Source: Octopus vulgaris
Lineage: Eukaryota
Direction: 5' to 3'
DNA: 64,000 bases
Assembly (NCBI GenBank): GCA_951406725.2
Contig: OX597815.1
Coordinates: forward strand, 138,756,001 to 138,820,000
Position numbers and translations under genes: made by a program. Numbering within the stretch: position 1 is the first letter of the stretch; each line of letters begins with the position of its first letter. This document shows, in pieces, positions 7,575 to 38,109 of this stretch. The notes beneath the pieces were generated by a model that saw only the letters and a program-made list of their open reading frames with translations, was not told where the DNA came from and did not search any database.

Positions 7575-7820
7575 TGTTTTATTATTACCCACAAGGGGCG
7601 AACACAGATGGGACAATACATTCTGATGATGGGGTCAGACAAACGAATGGGTTTTTACAATAAATCGGGTTTAAAAATTTTCATGAATAACAATAAATGG
7701 ACAGAAATCGAGTGATAGGACAGACCGGAAGACATTACGGGTGGAGTGGGTGCGGGTTTAGCTCGGACCCCACGAGCCCCGCCTCCCCACTGATACTTTT
7801 GGTTGCACTTGGTATTACAT

Positions 7821-10800
7821 TTATGTTGTAACTTTCATTCGCAACTTCCGTGCTACATCCTTCCATCGTTCTTCATACGCTCTCCTAGTCAGGCATATTC
7901 TCTCCAGCCCTATCTTCCTTTTCAGGTGAAAGATGAAATAATTCATCAAACCAGGGCCGGAGATGAACTTGCCTGACTGTAAACCTTTCATTCTCGTCTT
8001 CCATATCACCTCTTTCGCGATTGCTACTACAACGAGAAAACGAAACTTACCTTCATTCACGAGGAAATCCGGTGGGTCAATTTTTGTAATCGACTCAGTC
8101 GACAGCTGTACTCTTCGTGTACCTGACAACAGGTGTTCGGCATAAACCCACACCTCAGACACGTCCGGACAATGAACAATCGCGTGCGGGACGGTTTCCC
8201 TATCCCGCCCGCATCTTGGACATATCGGACTGTCTTGGCCACCGTGCCTTGCGAGTTTATCCCGAACAGGTAGAGCTCCTCTGTAGCATTGCCATGCCAG
8301 AGACTTCTGGAAGTTGTCCAGTGTCCTTGGCTCGAACGTACGTCGGAACAGACTGGCCAGCTGGTTATCGTCGAGACCTAGGGTTTCCCCAAGGTATCTT
8401 CACATTCCGCCTCTACCAACCCTCTATAGAAGAAAGTGGTGGAACCCCCACCGCAGGCGTTGCCCGAGCGACGGAATAGCAGGAGAGCCTTGCGACACTC
8501 CGTGTACCAAGTACCAAGTTTCGATCTACGATTCAGCCAGGTTTCCCATCCACCGAAACTAGTGAACTTGGGAAACATCAGTTTTGCTAGCGAAGACCAC
8601 ACCCGTTCACCATCCAGGTAGAGCCACAGATGTCTTAACCTCAGCGCATGTCTGCGCATCATCAGCCAAGGCATCCCTAGCCCACCCTTTAACGGTTGTT
8701 GACAGCAAGTAGAGCGTTTCACAAGTGGTTTCCCGCCCTTCCACAAGAAGTAGAAGAGCTGTCTTTCCAACTTGATCAACCACGAATCAGGGCAAGGAAC
8801 GACGGAAAGGCGGTAGGTGATAACCGATGCGATAAACACATTGGCCACCTCCGCCCTCCCTTTCAGGGATAGCCACCGCCAAGACCAGGTCTTGGCTACT
8901 GCAGCCACCTTGCTCGTTACCTCGCCCCAATTCTTCTCTATTTGGAGGTCTGGACCGAACCAGACCCCTAGCAGTTTAATCGGACCCTCCGTCCAACGTC
9001 CCACGACGCTGTCAGGAGGCATCGACTTGCCTCTCCAGGTGCCGAGTTGCAAGCCGACTGACTTTTCGCGATTAACTTTTGCTCCTGTCACCGTCTCGTA
9101 CACCTCTATGGCCTTGCCTACTTTACATAGGTGGTCCATTTCGGTTACGATGATGGTGATGTCATCCGCGTACGCTGACACTGATTTTCCATTACCTGGC
9201 TGTCTCGGGATGCCGCTCAGTTTTCGCAGTAATGGCTCAAGAGCCATCACGTACAAAAGCGGGGAGAGCGGACACCCTTGACGAACCGAGCGTTTGATTT
9301 TGAACGGCTTCGACAAGAAGCCGTTCACCCGAACTACCGAGTCGATGTTATCATAAATTTCGATAATCCACCTGAGGAATCCAAGGCTCAGCCCGAACTG
9401 TGCCAGGGCAGATACCAGGTAACGATGGTCGACCCTATCAAAAGCTTTAGATTGGTCTAAATGGACCAGTGCCCCACCCTTGCCAGAATCACTATTAAAC
9501 CCCTCTATAGTGTACCGCATTAGATGGAGATTATCCTGAATGGATCTGCCCGGAACGGCACATGTCTGTGGCCCCTCCGATCAGACCATCCGCGACACGC
9601 GCCAATCTTTTCGATAACACTTTGGCCAAAATCTTCAACTCTGTGTTTAGCAGAGTGATGGGCCTGAAATTATCAATGCACTCCCCCTTGCTCGGGTCCT
9701 TTCTGACGAGAGTCACTACTCCCCGGCGCACAGATCTGGGTATAAGCCCGTTCTGCTGCCAGTTCGCGTAGACCTCCGCCAGTAGGTGCCCGAACAAGTC
9801 TGGCATACTCTTATATAACTCATAGGGTAGACCATCCAAACCCGGCGCCTTGCCCGCGCCGCAGTCCGCCATTGCCTCAACCACCTCCTCAGGCGTGATT
9901 GGCCCTTCACAGCCCTCCGCATCTCGCCCCGATAAGCGCGGCAGACCGTCGAGTAGGTCCGTAAAGGCCCTCCTCCTATCCAGTCCGCCGCACTCACCGA
10001 AAAGCTGAGCGAAGTGCTCCTGAAAGGCCTCACACATCTCCTCGGGTTCGTTTATCAACTCACCTTGTTGGTTCGTCAAAGATCGAATCGTGGCATCGTT
10101 ACCATGCTGAGCTTCCACCACTCGGGCCCATCTCACGGCGTTGATTCCTTCACATCCCATATGACGGATTCTAGCCCTGACAATGCAGCCCATGTGTTTG
10201 GCCTCGAGGTGCTGGTTTAACACCAGTCTCTTGGCCGCCACCTGAGCCGCAGAGCCAGTTTTCATGGCTTCCTCTAATTCCTTAACTAGAGTAGTTTCCC
10301 TTCTAGCCTCTCTAGCCACTACTCCTATGCTATATCTAATAGACTCAAACTTGATGGCTCGTTTGAGGGCGTACCACCATTTGTTATTAATGATGGTACC
10401 AGATAGTGCCCTCTGAATTATATTCCTAATCCGGTCTTTGTACTCCTTAATCGCCAAAAGGGACGTATTAAGTTTCCAGTAACCGGATCCTCTATTTTTA
10501 ACCTTATCTATGTCAAGCTTACAAGTGACCATTTTATGATCACTGTAGCTGATCGGGTAAAACTGTGGACACTTAGCTATTTTACTGTCTACTTTTCTAA
10601 TTAGTATTCTATCTAGATACGACCTGGAAGATCCGTCGCTGTTTGACCATGTCCACAATGGAGCGTTCGGAAATTCCAGCCTATAAGGATCTGCTAGCTC
10701 AAAGCGGCTTAGCAGTTCCATGAAGCCACTGTTGCCTTTTCTATCTGGACACGAGCCAACATAATCTACATCCGCTTTGCAAATTGTGTTAAAGTCTCCT

Positions 10801-11216
10801 AGCACCACTAATGAATGCGAAGTACCAAGAAAGTTTTCTAGTTCACGAAAATAATCACTTTGCCCTGTATGGTTGGGTGCGTAAATTGCAACCAGTCTGA
10901 TAACTTTACCATTACTGAACGTCAAATCCATGACGACCAGCCTACCTTCTGGATCTGCAAAAATTAACTTTTTCTCAGAAACCCGGTTTCTTTTTAATAG
11001 GACCAACACCCCACTCCCGCCTGTAGGACTGCCAGGAGAGAAAAAACTCTCGTAGCCGTCAAACAGCGGGAGTAGACCTCTTGGCCCCTCTAGCCGGGTT
11101 TCTGTAGCAACAATAACATCTAAATTACGCGACCTGATATCATGCAGGAAGCGACCTTGCTTCCAGCCTGCTCCCAGGCCGCGCACATTTAAACAACCAA
11201 CATAAATGTAATCCAT
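7821..11216 (-). CDS. LINE ORF2: APE endonuclease, reverse transcriptase and C-terminal zinc finger; two 1-bp frameshifts (~9570, ~8387)
   Basis: APE motifs LNVRG, ETR, IYAPN, GDFN, LDRI, SDH. RT motifs LDQSKAFDRV, QGCPLSP, YADD. Bridging the shifts gives QTCAVPGRSIQDNLHLMR and ETLGLDDNQL...CPRCGRDRETVPHAIVHC, which joins the ORF pieces 9531-11216, 8378-9520 and 7821-8162. Confidence 0.92.
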
Positions 11217-11225
11217 TACTTACCT

Positions 11226-12604
11226 TTATATCAGTGGTTCGGTTTTTTCTTCTTCTTCCTTCTCTTTTTCTGGGCCTCGTGGGGGAGTCTGACGTAGGCC
11301 CTCGAATATATGTGGAGATGTTACATCCAACCTAAGTGGGCCTACGTCATGGAAGAATTCTGACTTTATCCGCCCGTAATCCTTCCGGTCTATTTTGTAA
11401 ATTACAAAGTCATTTTTTTTCTCTACTCTCTTCACATTGGCCATGGCTGCCAACACGTTTCCGAGTCTGCTATTTGATGCTTTTACGGCCATATATGAGT
11501 TCATTGACTCTTTTTTCTTTTTTAAAATTACTCTGGGAGGGGTGGTTTCCGTTTTTCTTTTTTTTTTTCCGATAATTTTTGCCCACCCCTCCTCATTTAT
11601 CTTTTCCTCGCTCTTTTTTTCTCCGCCGCTGGTTCTGCTGTTACCATCACCTCCACACCTTCAGTCTTCCCTTCTGGGCCGTCTGACGCTGCTTCTGGTG
11701 ACACATTGTCTTCTTTTTCTTTTGGCTTAGGTGCTTCCTGCGGTTTGGGTTGGGGCTGGCATTCCGCCCTTACATGCCCCTTCTTACCGCAGCCGAAGCA
11801 CCTCGGCTTTCTGCCCTCTACGAAGACTGTGACTCTTTCATCTTCGCTTATCCTTAGAGTCTCTGGGATCTCTTCCAGGGTTTGTACTTCTGCTTGTATG
11901 GCTATTATTATCTTTTGCCCTTTCCAGAATTCTTCTTCTTCTACGGTGGCCTGGAGGATGTTTATTTTTTCCTCCAGGCCTACCATAACTGCTGCCACTA
12001 GGACTTCGGCATCCGCTTCTGGCGGGATGTTGTTCATTGTGATCTTGGAAGTTCTCTTGCCTTTATACAGGGGTAGGAGAACAATATCCTCCGCTTTTAT
12101 GGGTTCCATGGATAGCTTCTTCGCTACCTCCTCTGACGTGAATCTCACCTCCACTGTGCCGTATTTCTTCCCTCGATTGATATACGTAATTTTATCCATT
12201 ATTGGCTTTAAGCAGTTTTCAATCTTTTTCTCCTCTATTTTTTGGATTGCTCTGTTTGTTATACTGAATGTCTTATAGATTATTCTCCTATTCGAAATAT
12301 CCTCCTGTATTTTGGCGTTTGAAGCCACGGTTACTTCCGTGCCCTCTTTTGACACACAGTCCGCATGTTTTCCCAGGTTGTCCACGTTAATTTTTTTAAT
12401 TTTCTTCCCAGCCACTTCAGCGAATTTTTTTGCTGGAGTTGATGCTGGTACTGGTTTTACCATTTTCTTGGGCGACGCCGCCTCTTTTTTCTTCGGCGAC
12501 AGCGCCTCTTTTTTTCTTGGCGACAACGCCTCTTTTTTACTTGGCGACAACGCCGGGTATTCATCCTCGCTCGTCACGGGCGAATAAGTGATGGGGGACT
12601 CCAT
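11226..12604 (-). CDS. LINE ORF1 (RRM-like region plus CCHC zinc knuckle, ~460 aa), one frameshift in an A-run at ~11615
   Basis: CFGCGKKGHVRAEC matches CX2CX4HX4C. Shifting frame gives SEEKINEEGWAKIIGKKKRK...KESMNSYMAV, in frame with ORF 11226-11504. The first ATG is at 12604. Confidence 0.85.
12465..12552 (-). repeat. 24-bp coding minisatellite in ORF1 encoding (A-L/A-S-P-x-K-K-E) about 4 times
   Basis: ALSPSKKE ALSPRKKE ALSPKKKE AASPKK. Confidence 0.85.
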
Positions 12605-12986
12605 CTTGAACAAATGGCTTTAACAAGCCTTTGGTAATCTAAATTGATTGTAGTTTTCCCCCACTGAGGGGGAACACCAACGCGAAGTCTTCGCGCGAAG
12701 GTTGACTTCGTCCGTTAGACAACAATGGACAAAAAAAGGTAGACCAACAGTATATAATAACAGAGATAAGTAGTATGAGAGCAAAAATATATATCAACTT
12801 ACTAATAACGCAATAAATTGATTTCCTCCATGTGATTTCTTTATTACCCACTAAGGGGCTACGAAGAATGGCGGACATAACAAAACATGGGGACATAGAA
12901 CATTATAATTAAACTTTATGAAAATGAATTGTTAAACGAAAAAAATGATAAAATGAAAGCGATACCAACGGCCCCGTCCGTCAGCA

Positions 12987-14403
12987 TCACTTACCTGTCC
13001 TTTGTTTTTCATAGTCACTTGAATGTTCTTTGTCAATACGAATAAATTCCATATCCATTCTTACTCCGAAATACTCATTCATATTTTCCACGAATTCATC
13101 GCTCATTCTTATATCTTTCACCTCCCAATTTTCCTTTTCACACCTCCCCATAAACTCACCTATGTTCTTTTTTTCAATCACAGCATACCTAGTCTCTCCA
13201 ACATCATACCGTTTATACTCTTCCATTAGACTTTTAACTTCCCTCTGTTCAGTCATAGTACAAATGTACGGCCTGGGTTCGATTTCAATCTCTTGTGTGT
13301 GTGTATTCTTTTTTTTTTTTGTTTTCTTGTTGGTGGGGAGCGGGTGGGTTCAATGTCTGCATGGATAGGGTGGGACTCAGAGGGTGTGGGAGGTTTTGGG
13401 GTAGATTGGAGTTCCATATTATTTTCTTTTTTTCCACATATTCTTCTCTTCCTCTTACTTCCAGCTTCCTTCCATGTCTGTGTATTCTCTTCCTCTGTTT
13501 CCTTCTCCTCTGGTTTCTGCTTCTCTCTCTCTGGTTCGGGATCCATTTCTTTCCCTGGGGGAGGGCAGAAGGCTCTTATGTGACCCCTCAGGCCACACTT
13601 GTAACAACGTGGAGCCCTGCCCTCCACCCACACTCTCATGATCACTTCTCCCAGTCTGATGCTTTCCGTCAGGTCCACCAGTACCTCGGTCTCTGCCTGT
13701 ACGTTCAGCTCCACTGTTACTCCTCTCCAGCCCTCGGACTTAACCGAGGCATGGAGAATATCTACTTCGTCCTCGTGGCCGCTGATCACAGCCGCCACAA
13801 TCCATTCTGCCTCCACGTTTGGTGGCACTCCCTCCACCCTTATTCGTGTAATCCTCCTGTTTAAATACGTAGGTAACAGTGTTACCTTTTCCGACTTCAC
13901 CGCCTTCGCTGCCATCTTCCTCGCTGCAGACTCAGTTTTGAAATGCACAACTACGGTCCCGTACTTGGATCCTCGAGTCAGAAAATTTATTTCCTCCTCA
14001 GTTCTTCGCAGGGCTTCCTCTATCCATTCCATGGTTAAACTTCTACCCTCTTCCTTTCGTTTGCGAACACCCTGTAAACAATGGTCCTCTTATCATACCA
14101 TTCTTTTCTCCTGGGTGTCGGTGATAGTTCCACCTCACCGCTTTCCTTTTTCATGTATTTCTGGTAACTTGGCAACTTGGCCATGTCGACCCCTTTCTCT
14201 TCCGCCTTCTTGGTTACACCGGCATAGGTATAACCCAGCTTCTTTTCCAATTCCCTTGCTGCCATATCTAGCTCCTTCTCAGACATAGGCAAGTCTGATA
14301 AAGACTCAAAAACTCCAGCCTTTTCCTCCATCAGCTTCACTGCAATTGCCTGTTCCAGTTCCTCATCCGTCGTGGATAAGTCTGTTAGCGACTCATAGTC
14401 CAT
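12987..14403 (-). pseudogene. ORF1-like protein, unit 1 (two frameshifts; distinct sequence variant)
   Basis: Pieces 14035-14403, 13253-14032 and 12987-13256. Private substitutions EEAL, KTES and IRIDKE. Confidence 0.8.
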
Positions 14404-14716
14404 TTCCTTCTGTCTGACAGACCGAAAACGGCCGCCAAAACAGAAAAAGTGTAACGCGCTGAACGAGCGAAACGCGAAACCGCGTCAACGCCGTTCAGAA
14501 TTTCCACAACAACAACAACCTTTTTTGTTCTTTTTTACCGAATTTCAGGAGCCGAAAAAAAACGTATTTCTTTATTACCCACTAAGGGGCTACGAAGAGT
14601 GGCTGACATCACAAAACATGGGGACATAGAACATTATAATTAAACTTTATGAACATGAATTGTTAAACGAAAAAATGATAAAATGAAAGCGACACCAACG
14701 GCCCCGTCCGTCAGCA

Positions 14717-16132
14717 TCACTTACCTGTCCTTTGTTTTTCATAGTCACTTGAATGTTCTTTGCCAATATGAATAAATTCCATATCCATTCTTACTCCGAA
14801 ATACTCATTCATATTTTCCACGAATTCATCGCTCATTCTTATATCTTTCACCTCCCAATTTTCCTTTTCACACCTCCCCATAAACTCACCTATGTTCTTT
14901 TTTTCAATCACAGCATACCTAGTCTCTCCAACATCATACCGTTTATACTCTTCCATTAGACTTTTAACTTCCCTCTGTTCAGTCATAGTACAAATGTACG
15001 GCCTGGGTTCGATTTCAATCTCTTGTGTGTGTGTATTCTTTTTTTTCTTTTGTTTTCTTGTTGGTGGGGAGCGGGTGGGTTCAATGTCTGCATGGATAGG
15101 GTGGGACTCAGAGGGTGTGGGAGGTTTTGGGGTAGATTGGAGTTCCATATTATTTTCTTTTTTTCCACATATTCTTCTCTTCCTCTTACTTCCAGCTTCC
15201 TTCCATGTCTGTGTATTCTCTTCCTCTGTTTCCTTCTCCTCTGGTTTCTGCTTCTCTCTCTCTGGTTCGGGATCCATTTCTTTCCCTGGGGGAGGGCAGA
15301 AGGCTCTTATGTGACCCCTCAGGCCACACTTGTAACAACGTGGAGCCCTGCCCTCCACCCACACTCTCATGATCACTTCTCCCAGTCTGATGCTTTCCGT
15401 CAGGTCCACCAGTACCTCGGTCTCTGCCTGTACGTTCAGCTCCACTACTCCTCTCCAGCCCTCGGACTTAACCGAGGCATGGAGAATATCTACTTCGTCC
15501 TCGTGGCCGCTGATCACAGCCGCCACAATCCATTCTGCCTCCACGTTTGGTGGCACTCCCTCCACCCTTATTCGTGTAATCCTCCTGTTTAAATACGTAG
15601 GTAACAGTGTTACCTTTTCCGACTTCACCGCCTTCGCTGCCATCTTCCTCGCTGCAGATTCACTTTTAAAGTGCACAACTACGGTCCCGTACTTGGATCC
15701 TCGAGTCAGAAAATTTATTTCCTCCTCAGTTCTTCGCAGGGCTTCCTGTATCCATTCCATGGTTACAACTTCTACCCTCTTCCTTTCGTTTGCGAACACC
15801 CTGTAAACAATGGTCCTCTTATCATACCATTCTTTTCTCCTGGGTGTCGGTGATAGTTCCACCTCACCGCTTTCCTTTTTCATGTATTTCTGGTAACTTG
15901 GCAACTTGGCCATGTCGACCCCTTTCTCTTCCGCCTTCTTGGTTACACCGGCATAGGTATAACCCAGCTTCTTTTCCAATTCCCTTGCTGCCATATCTAG
16001 CTCCTTCTCAGACATAGGCAAGTCTGATAAAGACTCAAAAACTCCAGCCTTTTCCTCCATCAGCTTCACTGCAATTGCCTGTTCCAGTTCCTCATCCGTC
16101 GTGGATAAGTCTGTTAGCGACTCATAGTCCAT
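14717..16132 (-). CDS. ORF1/Gag-like protein with CCHC knuckle, unit 2 (471 aa)
   Basis: CYKCGLRGHIRAFC; homologous to the adjacent LINE ORF1. Confidence 0.88.
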   Translation of the reverse strand: MDYESLTDLSTTDEELEQAIAVKLMEEKAGVFESLSDLPMSEKELDMAARELEKKLGYTYAGVTKKAEEKGVDMAKLPSYQKYMKKESGEVELSPTPRRKEWYDKRTIVYRVFANERKRVEVVTMEWIQEALRRTEEEINFLTRGSKYGTVVVHFKSESAARKMAAKAVKSEKVTLLPTYLNRRITRIRVEGVPPNVEAEWIVAAVISGHEDEVDILHASVKSEGWRGVVELNVQAETEVLVDLTESIRLGEVIMRVWVEGRAPRCYKCGLRGHIRAFCPPPGKEMDPEPEREKQKPEEKETEEENTQTWKEAGSKRKRRICGKKENNMELQSTPKPPTPSESHPIHADIEPTRSPPTRKQKKKKNTHTQEIEIEPRPYICTMTEQREVKSLMEEYKRYDVGETRYAVIEKKNIGEFMGRCEKENWEVKDIRMSDEFVENMNEYFGVRMDMEFIHIGKEHSSDYEKQRTGK

Positions 16133-16447
16133 TTCCTTCTGTCTGACAGACCGAAAACGGCCGCCAAAACAGAAAAAGTGTAACGCGCTGAACGAGCGAA
16201 ACGCGAAACCGCGTCAACGCCGTTCAGAATTTCCACAACAACAACAACCTTTTTTGTTCTTTTTTACCGAATTTTCAGGAGCCGAAAAAACCGCGTATTT
16301 CTTTATTACCCACTAAGGGGCTACGAAGAATGGCGGACATAACAAAACATGGGGACATAGAACATTATAATTAAACTTTATGAACATGAAGTGTTAAACG
16401 AAAAAATGATAAAATGAAAGCGACACCAACGGCCCCGTCCGTCAGCA

Positions 16448-17866: not shown

Positions 17867-18043
17867 TTCCTTCTGTCTGACAGACCGAAAACGGCCGCCA
17901 AAACAGAAAAAGTGTAACGCGCTGAACGAGCGAAACGCGAAACCGCGTCAACGCCGTTCAGAATTTCCACAACAACAACAACGCTTTTTGTTCTTTTTTA
18001 CCGAATTTTCAGGAGCCGAAAAAAAAACACGGAGCCGAAAAAA

Positions 18044-18116
18044 CGCGACCTTTCTCTACATTGTATACTTTATAGGCTATAGTCTTTTCTTTAATTTAAT
18101 TTTTTATTATCCATCT
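18044..18116 (-). other. 73-bp copy of the target/flank sequence embedded between units 3 and 4
   Basis: Matches 37407-37482 with a few differences. Confidence 0.85.
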
Positions 18117-18268
18117 CTTTTTTTTATTACCCACTAAGGGGCTACGAAGAATGGCGGACATAACAAAACATGGGGACATAGAACATTATAATTAAACTTT
18201 ATGAACATGAATTGTTAAACGAAAAAATGATAAAATGAAAGCGACACCAACGGCCCCGTCCGTCAGCA

Positions 18269-19688: not shown

Positions 19689-20003
19689 TTCCTTCTGTCT
19701 GACAGACCGAAAACGGCCGCCAAAACAGAAAAAGTGTAACGCGCTGAACGAGCGAAACGCGAAACCGCGTCAACGCCGTTCAGAATTTCCACAACAACAA
19801 CAACCTTTTTTGTTCTTTTTTACCGAATTTTCAGGAGCCGAAAAAAACGCGTATTTCTTTATTACCCACTAAGGGGCTACGAAGAATGGCGGACATAACA
19901 AAACATGGGGACATAGAACATTATAATTAAACTATATGAACATGAAGTGTTAAACGAAAAAATGATAAAATGAAAGCGACACCAACGGCCCCGTCCGTCA
20001 GCA

Positions 20004-24949: not shown

Positions 24950-25293
24950 TTCCTTCTGTCTGACAGACCGAAAACGGCCGCCAAAACAGAAAAAGTGTAA
25001 CGCGCTGAACGAGCGAAACGCGAAACCGCGTCAACGCCGTTCAGAATTTCCACAACAACAACAACCTTTTTTGTTCTTTTTTACCGAATTTTCAGGAGCC
25101 GAAAAAAAAACGACTGAGCAGAAAGCAGAAAGCAGTAAGGCTGATTTTTTATTACCCACTAAGGGGCTACGAAGAGTGCCGGACATAACAAAACATGGGG
25201 ACACAGAACATTATAATTAAATTTTATGAACATGAAGTGTTAAACGAAAAAATGATAAAATGAAAGCGACACCAACGGCCCCGTCCGTCAGCA

Positions 25294-26712: not shown

Positions 26713-27053
26713 TTCCTTCTGTCTGACAGACCGAAAACGGCCGCCAAAACAGAAAAAGTGTAACGCGCTGAACGAGCGAAACGCGAAACCGCGTCAACGC
26801 CGTTCAGAATTTCCACAACAACAACAACCTTTTTTGTTCTTTTTTACCGAATTTTCAGGAGCCGAAAAAAAAACGACTGAGCGAAAAGAAAGCAGTAAGG
26901 CTGATTTTTTATTACCCACTAAGGGGCTACGAAGAGTGCCGGACATAACAAAACATGGGGACACAGAACATTATAATTAAATTTTATGAACATGAAGTGT
27001 TAAACGAAAAAATGATAAAATGAAAGCGACACCAACGGCCCCGTCCGTCAGCA

Positions 27054-28472: not shown

Positions 28473-28816
28473 TTCCTTCTGTCTGACAGACCGAAAACGG
28501 CCGCCAAAACAGAAAAAGTGTAACGCGCTGAACGAGCGAAACGCGAAACCGCGTCAACGCCGTTCAGAATTTCCACAACAACAACAACAACTTTTTTGTT
28601 CTTTTTTACCGAATTTTCAGGAGCCGAAAAAAAACGACGAGCAGAAAGCAGAAAGCAGTAAGGCTGATTTTTTATTACCCACTAAGGGGCTACGAAGAGT
28701 GCCGGACATAACAAAACATGGGGACACAGAACATTATAATTAAATTTTATGAACATGAAGTGTTAAACGAAAAAATGATAAAATGAAAGCGACACCAACG
28801 GCCCCGTCCGTCAGCA

Positions 28817-30235
28817 TCACTTACCTGTCCTTTGTTTTTCATAGTCACTTGAATGTTCTTTGCCAATATGAATAAATTCCATATCCATTCTTACTCCGAA
28901 ATACTCATTCATATTTTCCACGAATTCATCGCTCATTCTTATATCTTTCACCTCCCAATTTTCCTTTTCACACCTCCCCATAAACTCACCTATGTTCTTT
29001 TTTTCAATCACAGCATACCTAGTCTCTCCAACATCATACCGTTTATACTCTTCCATTAGACTTTTAACTTCCCTCTGTTCAGTCATAGTACAAATGTACG
29101 GCCTGGGTTCGATTTCAATCTCTTGTGTGTGTGTATTCTTTTTTTTCTTTTGTTTTCTTGTTGGTGGGGAGCGGGTGGGTTCAATGTCTGCATGGATAGG
29201 GTGGGACTCAGAGGGTGTGGGAGGTTTTGGGGTAGATTGGAGTTCCATATTATTTTCTTTTTTTCCACATATTCTTCTCTTCCTCTTACTTCCAGCTTCC
29301 TTCCATGTCTGTGTATTCTCTTCCTCTGTTTCCTTCTCCTCTGGTTTCTGCTTCTCTCTCTCTGGTTCGGGATCCATTTCTTTCCCTGGGGGAGGGCAGA
29401 AGGCTCTTATGTGACCCCTCAGGCCACACTTGTAACAACGTGGAGCCCTGCCCTCCACCCACACTCTCATGATCACTTCTCCCAGTCTGATGCTTTCCGT
29501 CAGGTCCACCAGTACCTCGGTCTCTGCCTGTACGTTCAGCTCCACTGTTACTCCTCTCCAGCCCTCGGACTTAACCGAGGCATGGAGAATATCTACTTCG
29601 TCCTCGTGGCCGCTGATCACAGCCGCCACAATCCATTCTGCCTCCACGTTTGGTGGCACTCCCTCCACCCTTATTCGTGTAATCCTCCTGTTTAAATACG
29701 TAGGTAACAGTGTTACCTTTTCCGACTTCACCGCCTTCGCTGCCATCTTCCTCGCTGCAGATTCACTTTTAAAGTGCACAACTACGGTCCCGTACTTGGA
29801 TCCTCGAGTCAGAAAATTTATTTCCTCCTCAGTTCTTCGCAGGGCTTCCTGTATCCATTCCATGGTTACAACTTCTACCCTCTTCCTTTCGTTTGCGAAC
29901 ACCCTGTAAACAATGGTCCTCTTATCATACCATTCTTTTCTCCTGGGTGTCGGTGATAGTTCCACCTCACCGCTTTCCTTTTTCATGTATTTCTGGTAAC
30001 TTGGCAACTTGGCCATGTCGACCCCTTTCTCTTCCGCCTTCTTGGTTACACCGGCATAGGTATAACCCAGCTTCTTTTCCAATTCCCTTGCTGCCATATC
30101 TAGCTCCTTCTCAGACATAGGCAAGTCTGATAAAGACTCAAAAACTCCAGCCTTTTCCTCCATCAGCTTCACTGCAATTGCCTGTTCCAGTTCCTCATCC
30201 GTCGTGGATAAGTCTGTTAGCGACTCATAGTCCAT
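28817..30235 (-). CDS. ORF1/Gag-like protein, unit 10 (472 aa)
   Basis: Intact ORF with CCHC knuckle. Confidence 0.88.
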   Translation of the reverse strand: MDYESLTDLSTTDEELEQAIAVKLMEEKAGVFESLSDLPMSEKELDMAARELEKKLGYTYAGVTKKAEEKGVDMAKLPSYQKYMKKESGEVELSPTPRRKEWYDKRTIVYRVFANERKRVEVVTMEWIQEALRRTEEEINFLTRGSKYGTVVVHFKSESAARKMAAKAVKSEKVTLLPTYLNRRITRIRVEGVPPNVEAEWIVAAVISGHEDEVDILHASVKSEGWRGVTVELNVQAETEVLVDLTESIRLGEVIMRVWVEGRAPRCYKCGLRGHIRAFCPPPGKEMDPEPEREKQKPEEKETEEENTQTWKEAGSKRKRRICGKKENNMELQSTPKPPTPSESHPIHADIEPTRSPPTRKQKKKKNTHTQEIEIEPRPYICTMTEQREVKSLMEEYKRYDVGETRYAVIEKKNIGEFMGRCEKENWEVKDIRMSDEFVENMNEYFGVRMDMEFIHIGKEHSSDYEKQRTGK

Positions 30236-30548
30236 TTCCTTCTGTCTGACAGACCGAAAACGGCCGCCAAAACAGAAAAAGTGTAACGCGCTGAACGAGC
30301 GAAACGCGAAACCGCGTCAACGCCGTTCAGAATTTCCACAACAACAACAACGCTTTTTGTTCTTTTTTACCGAATTTTACAGAGCGCAAAAAAACGCGTT
30401 TTTTTATTACCCACTAAGGGGCTACGAAGAGTGCCGGACATAACAAAACATGGGGACACAGAACATTATAATTAAATTTTATGAACATGAAGTGTTAAAC
30501 GAAAAAATGATAAAATGAAAGCGACACCAACGGCCCCGTCCGTCAGCA

Positions 30549-31967
30549 TCACTTACCTGTCCTTTGTTTTTCATAGTCACTTGAATGTTCTTTGCCAATA
30601 TGAATAAATTCCATATCCATTCTTACTCCGAAATACTCATTCATATTTTCCACGAATTCATCGCTCATTCTTATATCTTTCACCTCCCAATTTTCCTTTT
30701 CACACCTCCCCATAAACTCACCTATGTTCTTTTTTTCAATCACAGCATACCTAGTCTCTCCAACATCATACCGTTTATACTCTTCCATTAGACTTTTAAC
30801 TTCCCTCTGTTCAGTCATAGTACAAATGTACGGCCTGGGTTCGATTTCAATCTCTTGTGTGTGTGTATTCTTTTTTTTTTTTTGTTTTCTTGTTGGTGGG
30901 GAGCGGGTGGGTTCAATGTCTGCATGGATAGGGTGGGACTCAGAGGGTGTGGGAGGTTTTGGGGTAGATTGGAGTTCCATATTATTTTCTTTTTTTCCAC
31001 ATATTCTTCTCTTCCTCTTACTTCCAGCTTCCTTCCATGTCTGTGTATTCTCTTCCTCTGTTTCCTTCTCCTCTGGTTTCTGCTTCTCTCTCTCTGGTTC
31101 GGGATCCATTTCTTTCCCTGGGGGAGGGCAGAAGGCTCTTATGTGACCCCTCAGGCCACACTTGTAACAACGTGGAGCCCTGCCCTCCACCCACACTCTC
31201 ATGATCACTTCTCCCAGTCTGATGCTTTCCGTCAGGTCCACCAGTACCTCGGTCTCTGCCTGTACGTTCAGCTCCACTGTTACTCCTCTCCAGCCCTCGG
31301 ACTTAACCGAGGCATGGAGAATATCTACTTCGTCCTCGTGGCCGCTGATCACAGCCGCCACAATCCATTCTGCCTCCACGTTTGGTGGCACTCCCTCCAC
31401 CCTTATTCGTGTAATCCTCCTGTTTAAATACGTAGGTAACAGTGTTACCTTTTCCGACTTCACCGCCTTCGCTGCCATCTTCCTCGCTGCAGATTCACTT
31501 TTAAAGTGCACAACTACGGTCCCGTACTTGGATCCTCGAGTCAGAAAATTTATTTCCTCCTCAGTTCTTCGCAGGGCTTCCTGTATCCATTCCATGGTTA
31601 CAACTTCTACCCTCTTCCTTTCGTTTGCGAACACCCTGTAAACAATGGTCCTCTTATCATACCATTCTTTTCTCCTGGGTGTCGGTGATAGTTCCACCTC
31701 ACCGCTTTCCTTTTTCATGTATTTCTGGTAACTTGGCAACTTGGCCATGTCGACCCCTTTCTCTTCCGCCTTCTTGGTTACACCGGCATAGGTATAACCC
31801 AGCTTCTTTTCCAATTCCCTTGCTGCCATATCTAGCTCCTTCTCAGACGTAGGCAAGTCTGATAAAGACTCGAAAACTCCAGCCTTTTCCTCCATCAGCT
31901 TCACTGCAATTGCCTGTTCCAGTTCCTCATCCGTCGTGGATAAGTCTGTTAGCGACTCATAGTCCAT
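30549..31967 (-). CDS. ORF1/Gag-like protein, unit 11 (472 aa)
   Basis: Intact ORF; M40T variant. Confidence 0.88.
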   Translation of the reverse strand: MDYESLTDLSTTDEELEQAIAVKLMEEKAGVFESLSDLPTSEKELDMAARELEKKLGYTYAGVTKKAEEKGVDMAKLPSYQKYMKKESGEVELSPTPRRKEWYDKRTIVYRVFANERKRVEVVTMEWIQEALRRTEEEINFLTRGSKYGTVVVHFKSESAARKMAAKAVKSEKVTLLPTYLNRRITRIRVEGVPPNVEAEWIVAAVISGHEDEVDILHASVKSEGWRGVTVELNVQAETEVLVDLTESIRLGEVIMRVWVEGRAPRCYKCGLRGHIRAFCPPPGKEMDPEPEREKQKPEEKETEEENTQTWKEAGSKRKRRICGKKENNMELQSTPKPPTPSESHPIHADIEPTRSPPTRKQKKKKNTHTQEIEIEPRPYICTMTEQREVKSLMEEYKRYDVGETRYAVIEKKNIGEFMGRCEKENWEVKDIRMSDEFVENMNEYFGVRMDMEFIHIGKEHSSDYEKQRTGK

Positions 31968-32311
31968 TTCCTTCTGTCTGACAGACCGAAAACGGCCGCC
32001 AAAACAGAAAAAGTGTAACGCGCTGAACGAGCGAAACGCGAAACCGCGTCAACGCCGTTCAGAATTTCCACAACAACAACAACCTTTTTTGTTCTTTTTT
32101 ACCGAATTTTCAGGAGCCGAAAAAAAAACGACTGAGCAGAAAGCAGAAAGCAGTAAGGCTGATTTTTTATTACCCACTAAGGGGCTACGAAGAGTGCCGG
32201 ACATAACAAAACATGGGGACACAGAACATTATAATTAAATTTTATGAACATGAAGTGTTAAACGAAAAAATGATAAAATGAAAGCGACACCAACGGCCCC
32301 GTCCGTCAGCA

Positions 32312-33730
32312 TCACTTACCTGTCCTTTGTTTTTCATAGTCACTTGAATGTTCTTTGCCAATATGAATAAATTCCATATCCATTCTTACTCCGAAATACT
32401 CATTCATATTTTCCACGAATTCATCGCTCATTCTTATATCTTTCACCTCCCAATTTTCCTTTTCACACCTCCCCATAAACTCACCTATGTTCTTTTTTTC
32501 AATCACAGCATACCTAGTCTCTCCAACATCATACCGTTTATACTCTTCCATTAGACTTTTAACTTCCCTCTGTTCAGTCATAGTACAAATGTACGGCCTG
32601 GGTTCGATTTCAATCTCTTGTGTGTGTGTATTCTTTTTTTTTTTTTGTTTTCTTGTTGGTGGGGAGCGGGTGGGTTCAATGTCTGCATGGATAGGGTGGG
32701 ACTCAGAGGGTGTGGGAGGTTTTGGGGTAGATTGGAGTTCCATATTATTTTCTTTTTTTCCACATATTCTTCTCTTCCTCTTACTTCCAGCTTCCTTCCA
32801 TGTCTGTGTATTCTCTTCCTCTGTTTCCTTCTCCTCTGGTTTCTGCTTCTCTCTCTCTGGTTCGGGATCCATTTCTTTCCCTGGGGGAGGGCAGAAGGCT
32901 CTTATGTGACCCCTCAGGCCACACTTGTAACAACGTGGAGCCCTGCCCTCCACCCACACTCTCATGATCACTTCTCCCAGTCTGATGCTTTCCGTCAGGT
33001 CCACCAGTACCTCGGTCTCTGCCTGTACGTTCAGCTCCACTGTTACTCCTCTCCAGCCCTCGGACTTAACCGAGGCATGGAGAATATCTACTTCGTCCTC
33101 GTGGCCGCTGATCACAGCCGCCACAATCCATTCTGCCTCCACGTTTGGTGGCACTCCCTCCACCCTTATTCGTGTAATCCTCCTGTTTAAATACGTAGGT
33201 AACAGTGTTACCTTTTCCGACTTCACCGCCTTCGCTGCCATCTTCCTCGCTGCAGATTCACTTTTAAAGTGCACAACTACGGTCCCGTACTTGGATCCTC
33301 GAGTCAGAAAATTTATTTCCTCCTCAGTTCTTCGCAGGGCTTCCTGTATCCATTCCATGGTTACAACTTCTACCCTCTTCCTTTCGTTTGCGAACACCCT
33401 GTAAACAATGGTCCTCTTATCATACCATTCTTTTCTCCTGGGTGTCGGTGATAGTTCCACCTCACCGCTTTCCTTTTTCATGTATTTCTGGTAACTTGGC
33501 AACTTGGCCATGTCGACCCCTTTCTCTTCCGCCTTCTTGGTTACACCGGCATAGGTATAACCCAGCTTCTTTTCCAATTCCCTTGCTGCCATATCTAGCT
33601 CCTTCTCAGACATAGGCAAGTCTGATAAAGACTCAAAAACTCCAGCCTTTTCCTCCATCAGCTTCACTGCAATTGCCTGTTCCAGTTCCTCATCCGTCGT
33701 GGATAAGTCTGTTAGCGACTCATAGTCCAT
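32312..33730 (-). CDS. ORF1/Gag-like protein, unit 12 (472 aa)
   Basis: Intact ORF with CCHC knuckle. Confidence 0.88.
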   Translation of the reverse strand: MDYESLTDLSTTDEELEQAIAVKLMEEKAGVFESLSDLPMSEKELDMAARELEKKLGYTYAGVTKKAEEKGVDMAKLPSYQKYMKKESGEVELSPTPRRKEWYDKRTIVYRVFANERKRVEVVTMEWIQEALRRTEEEINFLTRGSKYGTVVVHFKSESAARKMAAKAVKSEKVTLLPTYLNRRITRIRVEGVPPNVEAEWIVAAVISGHEDEVDILHASVKSEGWRGVTVELNVQAETEVLVDLTESIRLGEVIMRVWVEGRAPRCYKCGLRGHIRAFCPPPGKEMDPEPEREKQKPEEKETEEENTQTWKEAGSKRKRRICGKKENNMELQSTPKPPTPSESHPIHADIEPTRSPPTRKQKKKKNTHTQEIEIEPRPYICTMTEQREVKSLMEEYKRYDVGETRYAVIEKKNIGEFMGRCEKENWEVKDIRMSDEFVENMNEYFGVRMDMEFIHIGKEHSSDYEKQRTGK

Positions 33731-34074
33731 TTCCTTCTGTCTGACAGACCGAAAACGGCCGCCAAAACAGAAAAAGTGTAACGCGCTGAACGAGCGAAAC
33801 GCGAAACCGCGTCAACGCCGTTCAGAATTTCCACAACAACAACAACCTTTTTTGTTCTTTTTTACCGAATTTTCAGGAGCCGAAAAAAAAACGACTGAGC
33901 AGAAAGCAGAAAGCAGTAAGGCTGATTTTTTATTACCCACTAAGGGGCTACGAAGAGTGCCGGACATAACAAAACATGGGGACACAGAACATTATAATTA
34001 AATTTTATGAACATGAAGTGTTAAACGAAAAAATGATAAAATGAAAGCGACACCAACGGCCCCGTCCGTCAGCA

Positions 34075-35496
34075 TCACTTACCTGTCCTTTGTTTTTCAT
34101 AGTCACTTGAATGTTCTTTGCCAATATGAATAAATTCCATATCCATTCTTACTCCGAAATACTCATTCATATTTTCCACGAATTCATCGCTCATTCTTAT
34201 ATCTTTCACCTCCTCCCAATTTTCCTTTTCACACCTCCCCATAAACTCACCTATGTTCTTTTTTTCAATCACAGCATACCTAGTCTCTCCAACATCATAC
34301 CGTTTATACTCTTCCATTAGACTTTTAACTTCCCTCTGTTCAGTCATAGTACAAATGTACGGCCTGGGTTCGATTTCAATCTCTTGTGTGTGTGTATTCT
34401 TTTTTTTCTTTTGTTTTCTTGTTGGTGGGGAGCGGGTGGGTTCAATGTCTGCATGGATAGGGTGGGACTCAGAGGGTGTGGGAGGTTTTGGGGTAGATTG
34501 GAGTTCCATATTATTTTCTTTTTTTCCACATATTCTTCTCTTCCTCTTACTTCCAGCTTCCTTCCATGTCTGTGTATTCTCTTCCTCTGTTTCCTTCTCC
34601 TCTGGTTTCTGCTTCTCTCTCTCTGGTTCGGGATCCATTTCTTTCCCTGGGGGAGGGCAGAAGGCTCTTATGTGACCCCTCAGGCCACACTTGTAACAAC
34701 GTGGAGCCCTGCCCTCCACCCACACTCTCATGATCACTTCTCCCAGTCTGATGCTTTCCGTCAGGTCCACCAGTACCTCGGTCTCTGCCTGTACGTTCAG
34801 CTCCACTGTTACTCCTCTCCAGCCCTCGGACTTAACCGAGGCATGGAGAATATCTACTTCGTCCTCGTGGCCGCTGATCACAGCCGCCACAATCCATTCT
34901 GCCTCCACGTTTGGTGGCACTCCCTCCACCCTTATTCGTGTAATCCTCCTGTTTAAATACGTAGGTAACAGTGTTACCTTTTCCGACTTCACCGCCTTCG
35001 CTGCCATCTTCCTCGCTGCAGATTCACTTTTAAAGTGCACAACTACGGTCCCGTACTTGGATCCTCGAGTCAGAAAATTTATTTCCTCCTCAGTTCTTCG
35101 CAGGGCTTCCTGTATCCATTCCATGGTTACAACTTCTACCCTCTTCCTTTCGTTTGCGAACACCCTGTAAACAATGGTCCTCTTATCATACCATTCTTTT
35201 CTCCTGGGTGTCGGTGATAGTTCCACCTCACCGCTTTCCTTTTTCATGTATTTCTGGTAACTTGGCAACTTGGCCATGTCGACCCCTTTCTCTTCCGCCT
35301 TCTTGGTTACACCGGCATAGGTATAACCCAGCTTCTTTTCCAATTCCCTTGCTGCCATATCTAGCTCCTTCTCAGACATAGGCAAGTCTGATAAAGACTC
35401 AAAAACTCCAGCCTTTTCCTCCATCAGCTTCACTGCAATTGCCTGTTCCAGTTCCTCATCCGTCGTGGATAAGTCTGTTAGCGACTCATAGTCCAT
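34075..35496 (-). CDS. ORF1/Gag-like protein, unit 13 (473 aa)
   Basis: Intact ORF with a one-codon insertion. Confidence 0.88.
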   Translation of the reverse strand: MDYESLTDLSTTDEELEQAIAVKLMEEKAGVFESLSDLPMSEKELDMAARELEKKLGYTYAGVTKKAEEKGVDMAKLPSYQKYMKKESGEVELSPTPRRKEWYDKRTIVYRVFANERKRVEVVTMEWIQEALRRTEEEINFLTRGSKYGTVVVHFKSESAARKMAAKAVKSEKVTLLPTYLNRRITRIRVEGVPPNVEAEWIVAAVISGHEDEVDILHASVKSEGWRGVTVELNVQAETEVLVDLTESIRLGEVIMRVWVEGRAPRCYKCGLRGHIRAFCPPPGKEMDPEPEREKQKPEEKETEEENTQTWKEAGSKRKRRICGKKENNMELQSTPKPPTPSESHPIHADIEPTRSPPTRKQKKKKNTHTQEIEIEPRPYICTMTEQREVKSLMEEYKRYDVGETRYAVIEKKNIGEFMGRCEKENWEEVKDIRMSDEFVENMNEYFGVRMDMEFIHIGKEHSSDYEKQRTGK

Positions 35497-35830
35497 TTCC
35501 TTCTGTCTGACAGACCGAAAACGGCCGCCAAAACAGAAAAAGTGTAACGCGCTGAACGAGCGAAACGCGAAACCGCGTCAACGCCGTTCAGAATTTCCAC
35601 AACAACAACAACGCTTTTTGTTCTTTTTTACCGAATTTCAGGAGCCGAAAAAAAAAACACGGAGCCGAAAAAACTTATTTTATTTTTTATTACCCACTAA
35701 GGGGCTACGAAGAGTGCCGGACATAACAAAACATGGGGACACAGAACATTATAATTAAATTTTATGAACATGAAGTGTTAAACGAAAAATGATAAAATGA
35801 AAGCGACACCAACGGCCCCGTCCGTCAGCA

Positions 35831-37249
35831 TCACTTACCTGTCCTTTGTTTTTCATAGTCACTTGAATGTTCTTTGCCAATATGAATAAATTCCATATCC
35901 ATTCTTACTCCGAAATACTCATTCATATTTTCCACGAATTCATCGCTCATTCTTATATCTTTCACCTCCCAATTTTCCTTTTCACACCTCCCCATAAACT
36001 CACCTATGTTCTTTTTTTCAATCACAGCATACCTAGTCTCTCCAACATCATACCGTTTATACTCTTCCATTAGACTTTTAACTTCCCTCTGTTCAGTCAT
36101 AGTACAAATGTACGGCCTGGGTTCGATTTCAATCTCTTGTGTGTGTGTATTCTTTTTTTTCTTTTGTTTTCTTGTTGGTGGGGAGCGGGTGGGTTCAATG
36201 TCTGCATGGATAGGGTGGGACTCAGAGGGTGTGGGAGGTTTTGGGGTAGATTGGAGTTCCATATTATTTTCTTTTTTTCCACATATTCTTCTCTTCCTCT
36301 TACTTCCAGCTTCCTTCCATGTCTGTGTATTCTCTTCCTCTGTTTCCTTCTCCTCTGGTTTCTGCTTCTCTCTCTCTGGTTCGGGATCCATTTCTTTCCC
36401 TGGGGGAGGGCAGAAGGCTCTTATGTGACCCCTCAGGCCACACTTGTAACAACGTGGAGCCCTGCCCTCCACCCACACTCTCATGATCACTTCTCCCAGT
36501 CTGATGCTTTCCGTCAGGTCCACCAGTACCTCGGTCTCTGCCTGTACGTTCAGCTCCACTGTTACTCCTCTCCAGCCCTCGGACTTAACCGAGGCATGGA
36601 GAATATCTACTTCGTCCTCGTGGCCGCTGATCACAGCCGCCACAATCCATTCTGCCTCCACGTTTGGTGGCACTCCCTCCACCCTTATTCGTGTAATCCT
36701 CCTGTTTAAATACGTAGGTAACAGTGTTACCTTTTCCGACTTCACCGCCTTCGCTGCCATCTTCCTCGCTGCAGATTCACTTTTAAAGTGCACAACTACG
36801 GTCCCGTACTTGGATCCTCGAGTCAGAAAATTTATTTCCTCCTCAGTTCTTCGCAGGGCTTCCTGTATCCATTCCATGGTTACAACTTCTACCCTCTTCC
36901 TTTCGTTTGCGAACACCCTGTAAACAATGGTCCTCTTATCATACCATTCTTTTCTCCTGGGTGTCGGTGATAGTTCCACCTCACCGCTTTCCTTTTTCAT
37001 GTATTTCTGGTAACTTGGCAACTTGGCCATGTCGACCCCTTTCTCTTCCGCCTTCTTGGTTACACCGGCATAGGTATAACCCAGCTTCTTTTCCAATTCC
37101 CTTGCTGCCATATCTAGCTCCTTCTCAGACATAGGCAAGTCTGATAAAGACTCAAAAACTCCAGCCTTTTCCTCCATCAGCTTCACTGCAATTGCCTGTT
37201 CCAGTTCCTCATCCGTCGTGGATAAGTCTGTTAGCGACTCATAGTCCAT
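35831..37249 (-). CDS. ORF1/Gag-like protein, unit 14 (472 aa)
   Basis: Intact ORF with CCHC knuckle. Confidence 0.88.
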   Translation of the reverse strand: MDYESLTDLSTTDEELEQAIAVKLMEEKAGVFESLSDLPMSEKELDMAARELEKKLGYTYAGVTKKAEEKGVDMAKLPSYQKYMKKESGEVELSPTPRRKEWYDKRTIVYRVFANERKRVEVVTMEWIQEALRRTEEEINFLTRGSKYGTVVVHFKSESAARKMAAKAVKSEKVTLLPTYLNRRITRIRVEGVPPNVEAEWIVAAVISGHEDEVDILHASVKSEGWRGVTVELNVQAETEVLVDLTESIRLGEVIMRVWVEGRAPRCYKCGLRGHIRAFCPPPGKEMDPEPEREKQKPEEKETEEENTQTWKEAGSKRKRRICGKKENNMELQSTPKPPTPSESHPIHADIEPTRSPPTRKQKKKKNTHTQEIEIEPRPYICTMTEQREVKSLMEEYKRYDVGETRYAVIEKKNIGEFMGRCEKENWEVKDIRMSDEFVENMNEYFGVRMDMEFIHIGKEHSSDYEKQRTGK

Positions 37250-37406
37250 TTCCTTCTGTCTGACAGACCGAAAACGGCCGCCAAAACAGAAAAAGTGTAA
37301 CGCGCTGAACGAGCGAAACGCGAAACCGCGTCAACGCCGTTCAGAATTTCCACAACAACAACAACTTTTTGTTCTTTTTTACCGAATTTTCAGGAGCCGA
37401 AAAAAC

Positions 37407-37482
37407 CGCAACCTTTTTCCTCTACATTGTATACTTTATAGACAATAGTCTTTTCTTTAATTTAATTTTTTATTATCCATCT
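37407..37482 (-). pseudogene. Decayed ORF1 fragment (upstream half) of the interrupted third element
   Basis: The minus strand translates IKEKTIVYKVYNVEEKG, matching DKRTIVYRVFANERK (array ORF1) and NRRIIYKTFSITNR (LINE ORF1). In those proteins this motif immediately precedes the segment found at 7574. Confidence 0.7.
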
Positions 37483-38052: not shown

Positions 38053-38109
38053 AGACAGAGAGACACACGTTCTCAGTTTTATATATATAAATATTATTAT
38101 GCGTTTAGT

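Follow-up and report, generated by a model that had tools for sequence, protein, structure and literature searches.

The window, by which we mean the whole 64,000-nucleotide stretch of DNA analysed here, contains a long run of retroelement copies abutting a LINE, and the question raised by this locus is how such an array was built and what its units have to do with their neighbour. The preliminary description proposed a single helper/dependent pair in which ORF1-only elements had docked on an autonomous LINE at an interstitial site. Fourteen minus-strand, head-to-tail units of 1.72 kb were indeed found to adjoin the LINE (Table 1), and the site is interstitial as described, lying at 138.8 Mb on a 215.6-Mb contig. 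Measured from T-run to tail the units are 1717-1725 bp long, and any two of the fourteen are separated by 0-23 substitutions. An ORF of 471-473 aa is intact in eleven of them, the number originally given, and 1-bp indels break the other three (U10, 383 aa; U11, 397 aa; U14, 122+259 aa). No APE or RT sequence was found in any of the fourteen, again in agreement with the earlier reading. All fourteen unit tails and the LINE terminate in GCCCCTT(A)GTGGGTAATA.

Table 1. Positions of the annotated features in the window
Feature	Position	Strand	Remarks
Left part of host Helitron	37416..38093	-	A-run at its end stops ~12 bp before the empty-site CATGG
14 family-A ORF1-only units arrayed head to tail	12835..37415	-	U01 at 37404 to U14 ending 12842
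Seven junctions with 31-bp leader	21579..33930	-	U02 to U10 except U04/U05
Repeat of ~75 bp of Helitron-left sequence	18041..18116	-	between U11 and U12
Representative intact ORF1, 472 aa	16448..17866	-	U12
12-bp target duplication of the LINE, 5' copy, ACATGGAGGAAA	12822..12833	-	landing site of U14
Full-length L1/Tx1-type LINE	7575..12821	-	
LINE ORF1	12604-11597	-	35% identity with unit ORF1 across 235 aa
LINE ORF2	start 11216	-	APE, RT, zf-RVT; frameshifts near 9570 and 8386
3' copy of ACATGGAGGAAA	7563..7574	-	start of Helitron right part
Right part of host Helitron	7077..7574	-	3' hairpin 7107-7089, CTAG end 7081-7078
Decayed captured ORF1 fragment in Helitron right part	7555-7379		matches LINE ORF1 126-187, 37%
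Tandem SINE copies, period 179	1072..1601	-	tail as in LINE and units

The LINE has the ORF1 and ORF2 layout of the L1 group, with Exo_endo_phos, RVT_1 and zf-RVT domains identified by Pfam. The closest solved relative of its ORF2 is L1 ORF2p; among the best 120 matches one is named 'Transposon TX1' (38%) and none LINE-1, and human L1, found in a different database, is a weaker match than the TX1-named one. It was taken to be autonomous, which it is not as assembled, as its ORF2 is frameshifted twice, and its ORF1 seems to be cut short at 335 aa. A natural 1131-aa ORF2 is present on C15. The tail that is clearly common to the elements is only 18-25 nt long; a structured tail was considered and rejected, the folding being weak (z -0.9 to -1.8). 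That units and LINE have this tail in common holds, but it is not private to that pair since the SINE carries it as well, the copy at 1394-1378 ending in it. From the common tail and the common insertion site described below, we infer that an ORF2 of the LINE family would mobilise the units in trans. Among 100 of the 172 exact core matches in the genome, two isolated ones apart, no family-A ORF1 was seen to belong to an autonomous LINE.

Both the array and the LINE sit inside a 1.2-kb non-autonomous Helitron, which was absent from the preliminary description. Helitrons are marked by a 5' TC, a 3' hairpin with CTAG, a lack of terminal inverted repeats and an AT-type insertion context, and the host element shows these marks, its ends being defined from 14 empty copies and 30 copies in total. 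At the same position in the best 30 Helitron matches, fourteen are empty, ten contain the LINE and six contain a unit, and at least 209 perfect empty sites are left. The target duplication first reported for the LINE is real, as a lone LINE at C5 has intact Helitron flank through ACATGGAGGAAA on its 5' side and Helitron sequence after its 3' end. We mapped 49 stretches, excluding the C17, C23 and C38 arrays, and found Helitron flank in 37 of them. Twenty run straight into the Helitron without a LINE, which speaks against an array docked specifically on the LINE, fifteen reach the LINE, and the remaining fourteen end elsewhere or were followed only part of the way. Twenty-two junctions of the tail with CACATGG were found, thirteen leading to the Helitron, six to the LINE and three to another ORF1-only family. 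CATGG follows at a distance of 1-3 nt after 99 LINE-type tails (a count that takes in both Helitron and LINE-type 5' tags) compared with 166 LINE-type tails overall, the two search patterns differing by 2 nt. About 40% of LINE-type tails lack an adjoining CATGG, which counts against the explanation proposed below. The LINE flanks exceed the 20% of flanks by which a multicopy-target preference of Tx1 type is defined in PMC4494074.

These junctions show that the LINE and the units use one site in a multicopy Helitron, and that the LINE's 12-bp duplication regenerates this site upstream of the LINE. What makes the LINE a landing pad is solely the Helitron site that is restored by the target duplication on its 5' side. 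The first unit of an array enters the Helitron site with or without a LINE, with the loss of about 12 bp of target.

The core matches include several other long arrays besides the one in the window. By our own reading of the rows classed as 'other', four of the 135 family-A 3' ends lie outside the system. Even with so many empty sites left, three or more tails occur at twelve loci compared with 3.2 expected by Poisson. Neighbouring units are no more alike than chance would have them: the 54 adjacent pairs outside the window have a median of 30.5 shared-SNP differences compared with 33 between arrays, and only one of these pairs is near-identical. Junction sequences show that subsequent units are inserted anywhere between about 75 bp upstream of the preceding unit's 5' end and about 100 bp within it, sometimes deeper, and that these insertions leave pieces of local flank behind as junction tags. 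Duplications were seen at C22, C14_65 and C3_177, and at C14_65 and C3_177 variants of the outer flank that are private to the locus reappear in the inner tags. At C5_144, C7_57 and C9_25 shared private variants are not evident in the inner tags, the window's own inner Helitron tag (between U11 and U12) differs from its outer flank by two substitutions and in the junction letters, and the inner and outer tags are clearly diagnostic at only two of the six loci that have both. Landing guided by the tail is suggested by all fifteen tails of one B haplotype, which run on into ACATG, and by the order of the two families, A being the upstream one in 21 stretches and B in a single one. Repair through long 5' homology, taking hundreds of bases from the neighbour, was rejected as the mismatch ratio of adjacent to between-array pairs is 0.73-0.99 with no 5' trend; the first mismatch falls at 148 in adjacent and 137 in between-array pairs, and the type of 5' end tracks the neighbour only loosely.

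Passage of the unit copies through RNA is indicated by their substitutions. Rare sense-strand changes in 123 copies comprise 184 A>G and 29 T>C, and 142 of the A>G changes fall in eight copies, which occur in both genomic orientations. The 5' neighbour preference (T/A>C>G) is an ADAR-like context. Helitron flanks are symmetric for A>G and T>C, and no A>G excess was found in ten LINE 3' ends, in nine copies of family D or, as tracts, in the units of the window. Donor-derived conversion of the Helitron-left flank was likewise rejected, as that flank showed neither a clear tract nor an excess of A>G. Taken together, the random-like neighbours, the locus-private flank duplications and the sense-strand A>G tracts argue that arrays are built by separate RNA-mediated insertions. 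They also bear out the claim that we are dealing with a genuine ORF1-only retroelement that is mobile, the unit having independent junctions throughout the genome.

Template jumping, a process known from R2, would instead produce a whole array at once, one RT event copying several RNAs or the read-through RNA of an array. Terminally redundant donors such as the C22/C31 duplication would permit switching at the common flank, the U02-U10 junctions are near-identical and both C14_65 units are rich in A>G. However, an RNA-to-RNA jump would not provide the locus-private Helitron flank at inner junctions, most A>G tracts are limited to single units, and by eye no order of families and junctions is repeated between two mapped arrays. 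We consider this reading unlikely.

The array in the window differs from the others in its uniformity, with a median of 7 substitutions compared with 20-56 in nine other arrays and 40 in between-array pairs. Its units form one haplotype that is found in only three outside copies (C22, C31 and C8), and U14 shares the uniformity though its junction type accompanies another haplotype elsewhere. Homogenisation or assembly polishing may therefore have acted on this array, or part of it may be a burst from a single donor or the result of local recombination. The leader at seven of its junctions corresponds to the flank, with the target duplication, of a unit that adjoins the remnant of a mariner transposase (C22/C31), and two arrays away from the contigs of that locus have this leader and duplication at their junctions. 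Contigs from run X2, which belongs to a different study and is of unrecorded kind, cover a unit and continue into C22/C31-type flank at both ends. The Helitron is not covered in this run and the LINE hardly so, while run X5 covers everything, differences that we do not take as evidence of expression.

Local amplification, with unequal crossing-over or gene conversion multiplying or homogenising a small number of insertions, would suit the low divergence and rare haplotype of these units, and two neighbours-but-one of family C at C1_142.9 are identical. In other arrays, however, neighbours differ like random pairs and ORF1s that are 22-62% identical are interleaved, the mariner-derived 31-bp leader has a different tail in the C17 array, and even the array in the window contains at least seven junction types. 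For the U02-U10 block local amplification is plausible, at somewhat under even chances; as an account of the system as a whole it is improbable, and we do not adopt it. Most likely, the uniform U02-U10 block comes from one donor lineage of C22/C31 type, to which a measure of local recombination may or may not have been added.

The same uniformity, the homopolymer frameshifts that are common across copies and the fact that no read or contig to hand spans the array could also mean that the fourteen copies are an assembly artefact standing for fewer real ones. We regard this as very improbable given the distinct junctions and private variants of the window units, the dozens of mixed arrays elsewhere and the occurrence of the head-to-tail joint in read-derived contigs of run X1, possibly this DNA's own reads; contig depth in the runs gives no copy number.

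At least six ORF1-only families share arrays and tail, and the pairing of one helper with one dependent must be given up accordingly. Their ORF1s are 22-82% identical to one another and about 30% identical to that of the LINE, which argues that they are not recent deletions of their presumed helper; among the elements examined, no parent LINE for an origin by internal deletion was seen. The ORF1 of U12 contains two RRM-like domains (approximately residues 98-261), one CCHC knuckle and then a low-confidence tail, and the knuckle is present in seven of eleven aligned ORF1s. The folds listed by structure searches were of generic RRM/ACT kind (79 aligned in the best match, with Z 8.9 and rmsd 2.5); LINE ORF1p was not among the matches listed, an absence that excludes nothing. 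In a word-index homologue search with residues 90-300 none of 1619 candidates scored, a profile search with a threshold of E<=0.001 gave 1619 proteins, all unnamed, and Rfam had no matches in three loci. Deep branches in a quick ORF1 tree were weak and long. Values of dN/dS, from a simple counting method with dS near saturation, are 0.16-0.26 for the whole ORF in A-B, A-C and E-F (0.23 for A-B and 0.16 for E-F) and 0.08-0.14 for the core in A-B2, A-C, B-C and E-F. These ratios indicate that ORF1 is kept under purifying selection.

We therefore propose, as the probable explanation, that the units are relatives of an L1/Tx1-type LINE that encode ORF1 alone and are non-autonomous, and that an array gains its copies mainly through individual target-primed insertions at or near the 5' end of the resident element. 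An ORF2 of the LINE family would supply endonuclease and reverse transcriptase by recognising the common tail, and transcripts would start and stop a few to tens of bases beyond the element. The RNA would then end in bases that correspond to the donor's flank and that can anneal to the target at its nick; as a donor within an array has the 5' end of another unit next to it, its RNA would favour 5' ends and so feed the growth of arrays. A wider reading is more tentative and somewhat less likely to be right than wrong: a telomere-free counterpart of HeT-A/TART, comprising one site-specific LINE lineage and at least six long-lived ORF1-only lineages. Here the flank bases borne by transcripts would largely set the landing site, so that membership of an array steers offspring to arrays in a self-reinforcing, RNA-guided loop, and ADAR-type editing of RNA intermediates would have been frozen into the genome.

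The outcome is that of fly telomeres, reached in another clade and at many loci. It opens to test the idea that array-building at safe sites, rather than telomere duty, favours ORF1-only parasites. Hundreds of natural junctions bear on how far RNA-DNA pairing, as opposed to the endonuclease, chooses the site. The system is also of interest because a Helitron may be the target of a Tx1-type LINE and because A-to-I-type editing would have left genomic fossils in a cephalopod-like genome.

The separate parts of this system are already known from HAL1 and HeT-A, from Tx1 targeting of transposons and from R1 tandems, whereas their combination was not found in the literature searched; Repbase/Dfam or the supplements of PMC13282606 and PMC4494074 may list the ORF1-only families or the Helitron target. 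Tandem R1 elements in 28S rDNA arise when a new copy inserts into the duplication that borders an existing one on its 5' side, one R1 subtype makes a constant short target deletion (PMC2718515), and in R1Bm and SART1 the 3' RNA bases anneal to the target (PMC7265360). These are autonomous R1-clade elements of rDNA or telomeric repeats, and the relevant sections of both papers mention no ORF1-only families. A LINE and its non-autonomous passenger share a site in a non-autonomous DNA transposon in the case of Tx1-Mar and SINEU-3 in Mariner-N4_AMi, and of Tx1L in Tx1D; a duplication is sandwiched between tandem passengers, and 5' extensions derive from the flank (PMC4494074). The passengers there are non-coding SINEs whereas the units here encode ORF1, and our arrays reach at least fourteen units, mostly inserted onto unit 5' ends and not at the original site. 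The Tx1 targets named in that account are piggyBac, Mariner, Harbinger and LTR elements, snRNA and microsatellites, with no Helitron among them (PMC4494074).

HAL1 (half-L1) and Ag-Sponge are non-autonomous LINE derivatives with ORF1p only, for which the pertinent passages of PMC5753468 and PMC5786205 mention neither arrays nor site specificity. Like these and HeT-A, the units carry a LINE ORF1 homologue only, and their dispersed copies were made through RNA with a LINE-like 3' end. The analogy with HAL1 and HeT-A drawn in the preliminary description fits. HeT-A-type elements attach new copies to the 5' end of earlier copies. In Drosophila, HeT-A and other ORF1-only telomeric Jockey elements form head-to-tail arrays mixed with ORF2-bearing partners, and ORF1-only lineages have founded further ORF1-only families (PMC13534243, PMC5786205). 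Our units likewise form ORF1-only head-to-tail arrays with an ORF2-bearing partner, but they are of L1/Tx1 type and not Jockey, the ORF2 of the partner being nearest to L1 ORF2p. They occupy many loci, the one in the window being interstitial and inside a Helitron, and their sites show target duplications or a short deletion.

Fourteen units of 1717-1725 bp each make up the window array on the minus strand, spanning 37404-12842. Self-comparison, ORF listing and alignment bear out the preliminary description, which had counted fourteen units in the same orientation, eleven with an intact ORF1; an ORF of 471-473 aa is present in these eleven, and the remaining three are disrupted by single-base indels. 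The ORF is a homologue of LINE ORF1 (35% identity over 235 aa with the ORF1 of the adjoining LINE) and carries a CCHC knuckle together with two RRM-like domains in the predicted model, which has a mean pLDDT of 58 and a core of about 70-90. The region 38100-64000 of the window is AT-rich, with microsatellites and SINE pieces, and gave no further LINE or unit protein match.

The window array was found to have the lowest divergence among the ten arrays with at least four units of its family (A), with a median of 7 substitutions against 20-56 in the others, and its haplotype is shared with just three copies outside the window. Part of this uniformity may therefore be due to a burst from a single donor, gene conversion, unequal exchange or assembly polishing. 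It had also been considered beforehand that the whole array might be one amplified fragment; the presence of at least seven junction types in the window argues against this.

The system is real and larger than first noted. Genome-wide, the core of family A has 172 exact matches, its commonest tail 122 and a short head-to-tail pattern 91 matching junctions, and match positions indicate further long arrays on contigs C1, C8, C10, C14 and C17 of the same genome. Families B, C, D, E and F are likewise all ORF1-only and carry the same tail motif. The ORF1s of families A-F share 22-82% identity with one another and about 30% with the LINE ORF1, and those distant pairs for which dN/dS could be measured gave 0.16-0.26; a quick tree grouped A, B and C at 100% SH-aLRT, the deep forks being weak. 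Forty-nine stretches, taken from the top DNA matches and the first 100 listed tails, were mapped, and the Helitron flank was present in 37 of them. The initial reading of an array docked on a LINE as a helper/dependent pair is not supported in that form, as twenty arrays end in the Helitron without a LINE whereas fifteen reach one (fourteen are unresolved or elsewhere), and several families besides A are ORF1-only.

The sequences on either side of the array and LINE belong to a single 1.2-kb repeat that is split in two. The repeat has 2057 first-look candidates genome-wide, and its ends have the features that define the Helitron type. The insertion site falls inside the decayed ORF1 fragment of the Helitron (see table), and related ORF1 genes are a possible original target. 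Among the thirty best Helitron matches, chosen by likeness to the window copy, fourteen are empty, ten contain a LINE and six a unit, all at the same base; at least 209 perfect empty sites are left. In nearly all the outer junctions listed, units at this site are attached to an A-run located about 12 bp further upstream. A 146-bp tandem duplication in the left part of the Helitron (window 37754-38030) also occurs in other copies, and at one locus (L076) the Helitron 3' end is directly followed by a second, partial Helitron beginning near the target region.

The window LINE encodes APE, RT and zf-RVT domains and carries frameshifts; a natural ORF2 of 1131 aa is present on C15. The LINE RT shares 64% identity with an Argonauta protein and 38% with a protein named 'Transposon TX1'. 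Together with the octopus-like appearance of a SINE, this points to an octopod source. A solo LINE leaves the Helitron flank intact and duplicates ACATGGAGGAAA; the predicted solo junction has fifteen matches, one of which was inspected in sequence. LINE-type tails in the genome list (G000) are often spaced about 5.26 kb apart (e.g., C1:8234890/8240148 and C4:143171174/143176439), likely representing full-length LINE dimers, and others recur at about 1.8 kb, likely representing short elements of the E/F type.

A total of 135 family A 3' ends were classified by script: 76 meet a unit 5' end, 16 a 5' UTR, 10 a Helitron tag before a unit, 10 the Helitron, 8 a LINE-type 5' end and 15 other sequence. 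Read individually, eleven of these fifteen still belong to the system and four lie outside. The tails are clumped, with twelve loci holding at least three where 3.2 are expected under a rough Poisson model of 100 of the 122 tail positions. Beyond the window, neighbouring copies (54 pairs) are about as divergent from each other as copies taken from separate arrays, a result that speaks against local duplication. At two loci (C14_65 and C3_177) private variants of the outer flank are repeated in the inner tag, as expected of target duplication; clear sharing was absent at four other loci, the window among them. Some units (L137-L138, L146-L147, L169 and L134) were inserted deep in the ORF of another unit, at positions of about 750, 1360, 1380, 1440 and 1525. 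These insertions lie at short stretches of microhomology and have left 3' fragments behind in the array. One array unit (L135, C1:74.68 Mb) is broken by an inverted duplicate of its 3' half, which could give rise to double-stranded RNA.

The bases directly after the AATAAA signal correlate with the landing site and would steer landing. In one B haplotype, all fifteen tails run on into ACATG, and A lies upstream of B in 21 stretches with the reverse in one. A 31-bp leader is present at seven window junctions and corresponds to the flank plus target duplication of a unit next to a mariner remnant on C22/C31; the leader also occurs in a C17 array, after a tail resembling that of C22. Contigs from a sequencing run of another study (X2, run kind not on record) span a unit and extend into the C22/C31 flank type at both ends. 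This locus is a likely donor of the window haplotype. Its two versions, L031 (C31:2.66 Mb) and L033 (C22:14.25 Mb), lie beside a mariner transposase remnant, are 96% alike over 4.1 kb and carry unit insertions that differ but occupy the same position, being allelic or duplicated. A donor transcribed with both duplication copies would yield an RNA able to pair through its 3' end with the 5' leader of a previous insert. Counting against the overall model, the tail has little length or structure and is common to an abundant SINE, which may be another passenger of the same LINE lineage since it shares this tail and forms its own head-to-tail repeats.

Rare substitutions in 123 family A copies, on the element sense strand, comprise 184 A>G against 29 T>C. 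The excess is concentrated in eight copies lying on both genomic strands, and the Helitron flanks are symmetric for the two changes. It was also found in one of fourteen B copies and was not found in ten LINE 3' ends or nine D copies. G is rare as the 5' neighbour of the A>G sites, a context in line with the neighbour preference of ADAR. The pattern probably reflects ADAR editing of RNA intermediates. In five single copies the tracts are between a few hundred and a thousand bases long, and these five are candidate fossils of A-to-I hyper-editing. No report of genomic A>G-edited LINE-type copies was found in listings of the mainly open-access literature searched.

Positions of annotated features (window coordinates, or contig and Mb for fetched loci)
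Feature	Locus	Position
Single copy with 18-35 sense-strand A>G changes	L133	C1:12.8 Mb
Single copy with 18-35 sense-strand A>G changes	L140	C3:20.07 Mb
Single copy with 18-35 sense-strand A>G changes	L143	C3:113.97 Mb
Single copy with 18-35 sense-strand A>G changes	L172	C14:65.43 Mb
Single copy with 18-35 sense-strand A>G changes	L043	C15:0.80 Mb
SINE with LINE/unit tail, head-to-tail, period 179	window	1072-1601 and 62204-62513
Decayed ORF1 fragment of the same ORF1 group in host Helitron	window; also L077-L102	7379-7555 and 37420-37482

The system puts known components into a new arrangement. An octopus repeat survey reports thirteen recently active L1-Tx1 families and, in the part covered, does not describe such arrays (PMC13282606); in the same literature listings, arrays of several ORF1-only families within a Helitron were not found to have been reported. 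The individual parts have precedents. HAL1, HeT-A and Ag-Sponge are ORF1-only, as are the units (PMC5786205, PMC5753468), and such lineages occur widely at Drosophila telomeres (PMC13534243). For the proposed pairing of the RNA 3' end with the leader of an earlier insert, precedents are the building of R1 arrays within the 5' duplication (PMC2718515) and the 3' annealing of SART1/R1Bm (PMC7265360). Finally, Tx1 families that have SINE passengers use DNA transposons as targets and make tandems (PMC4494074), much like the LINE and unit arrays in the Helitron.
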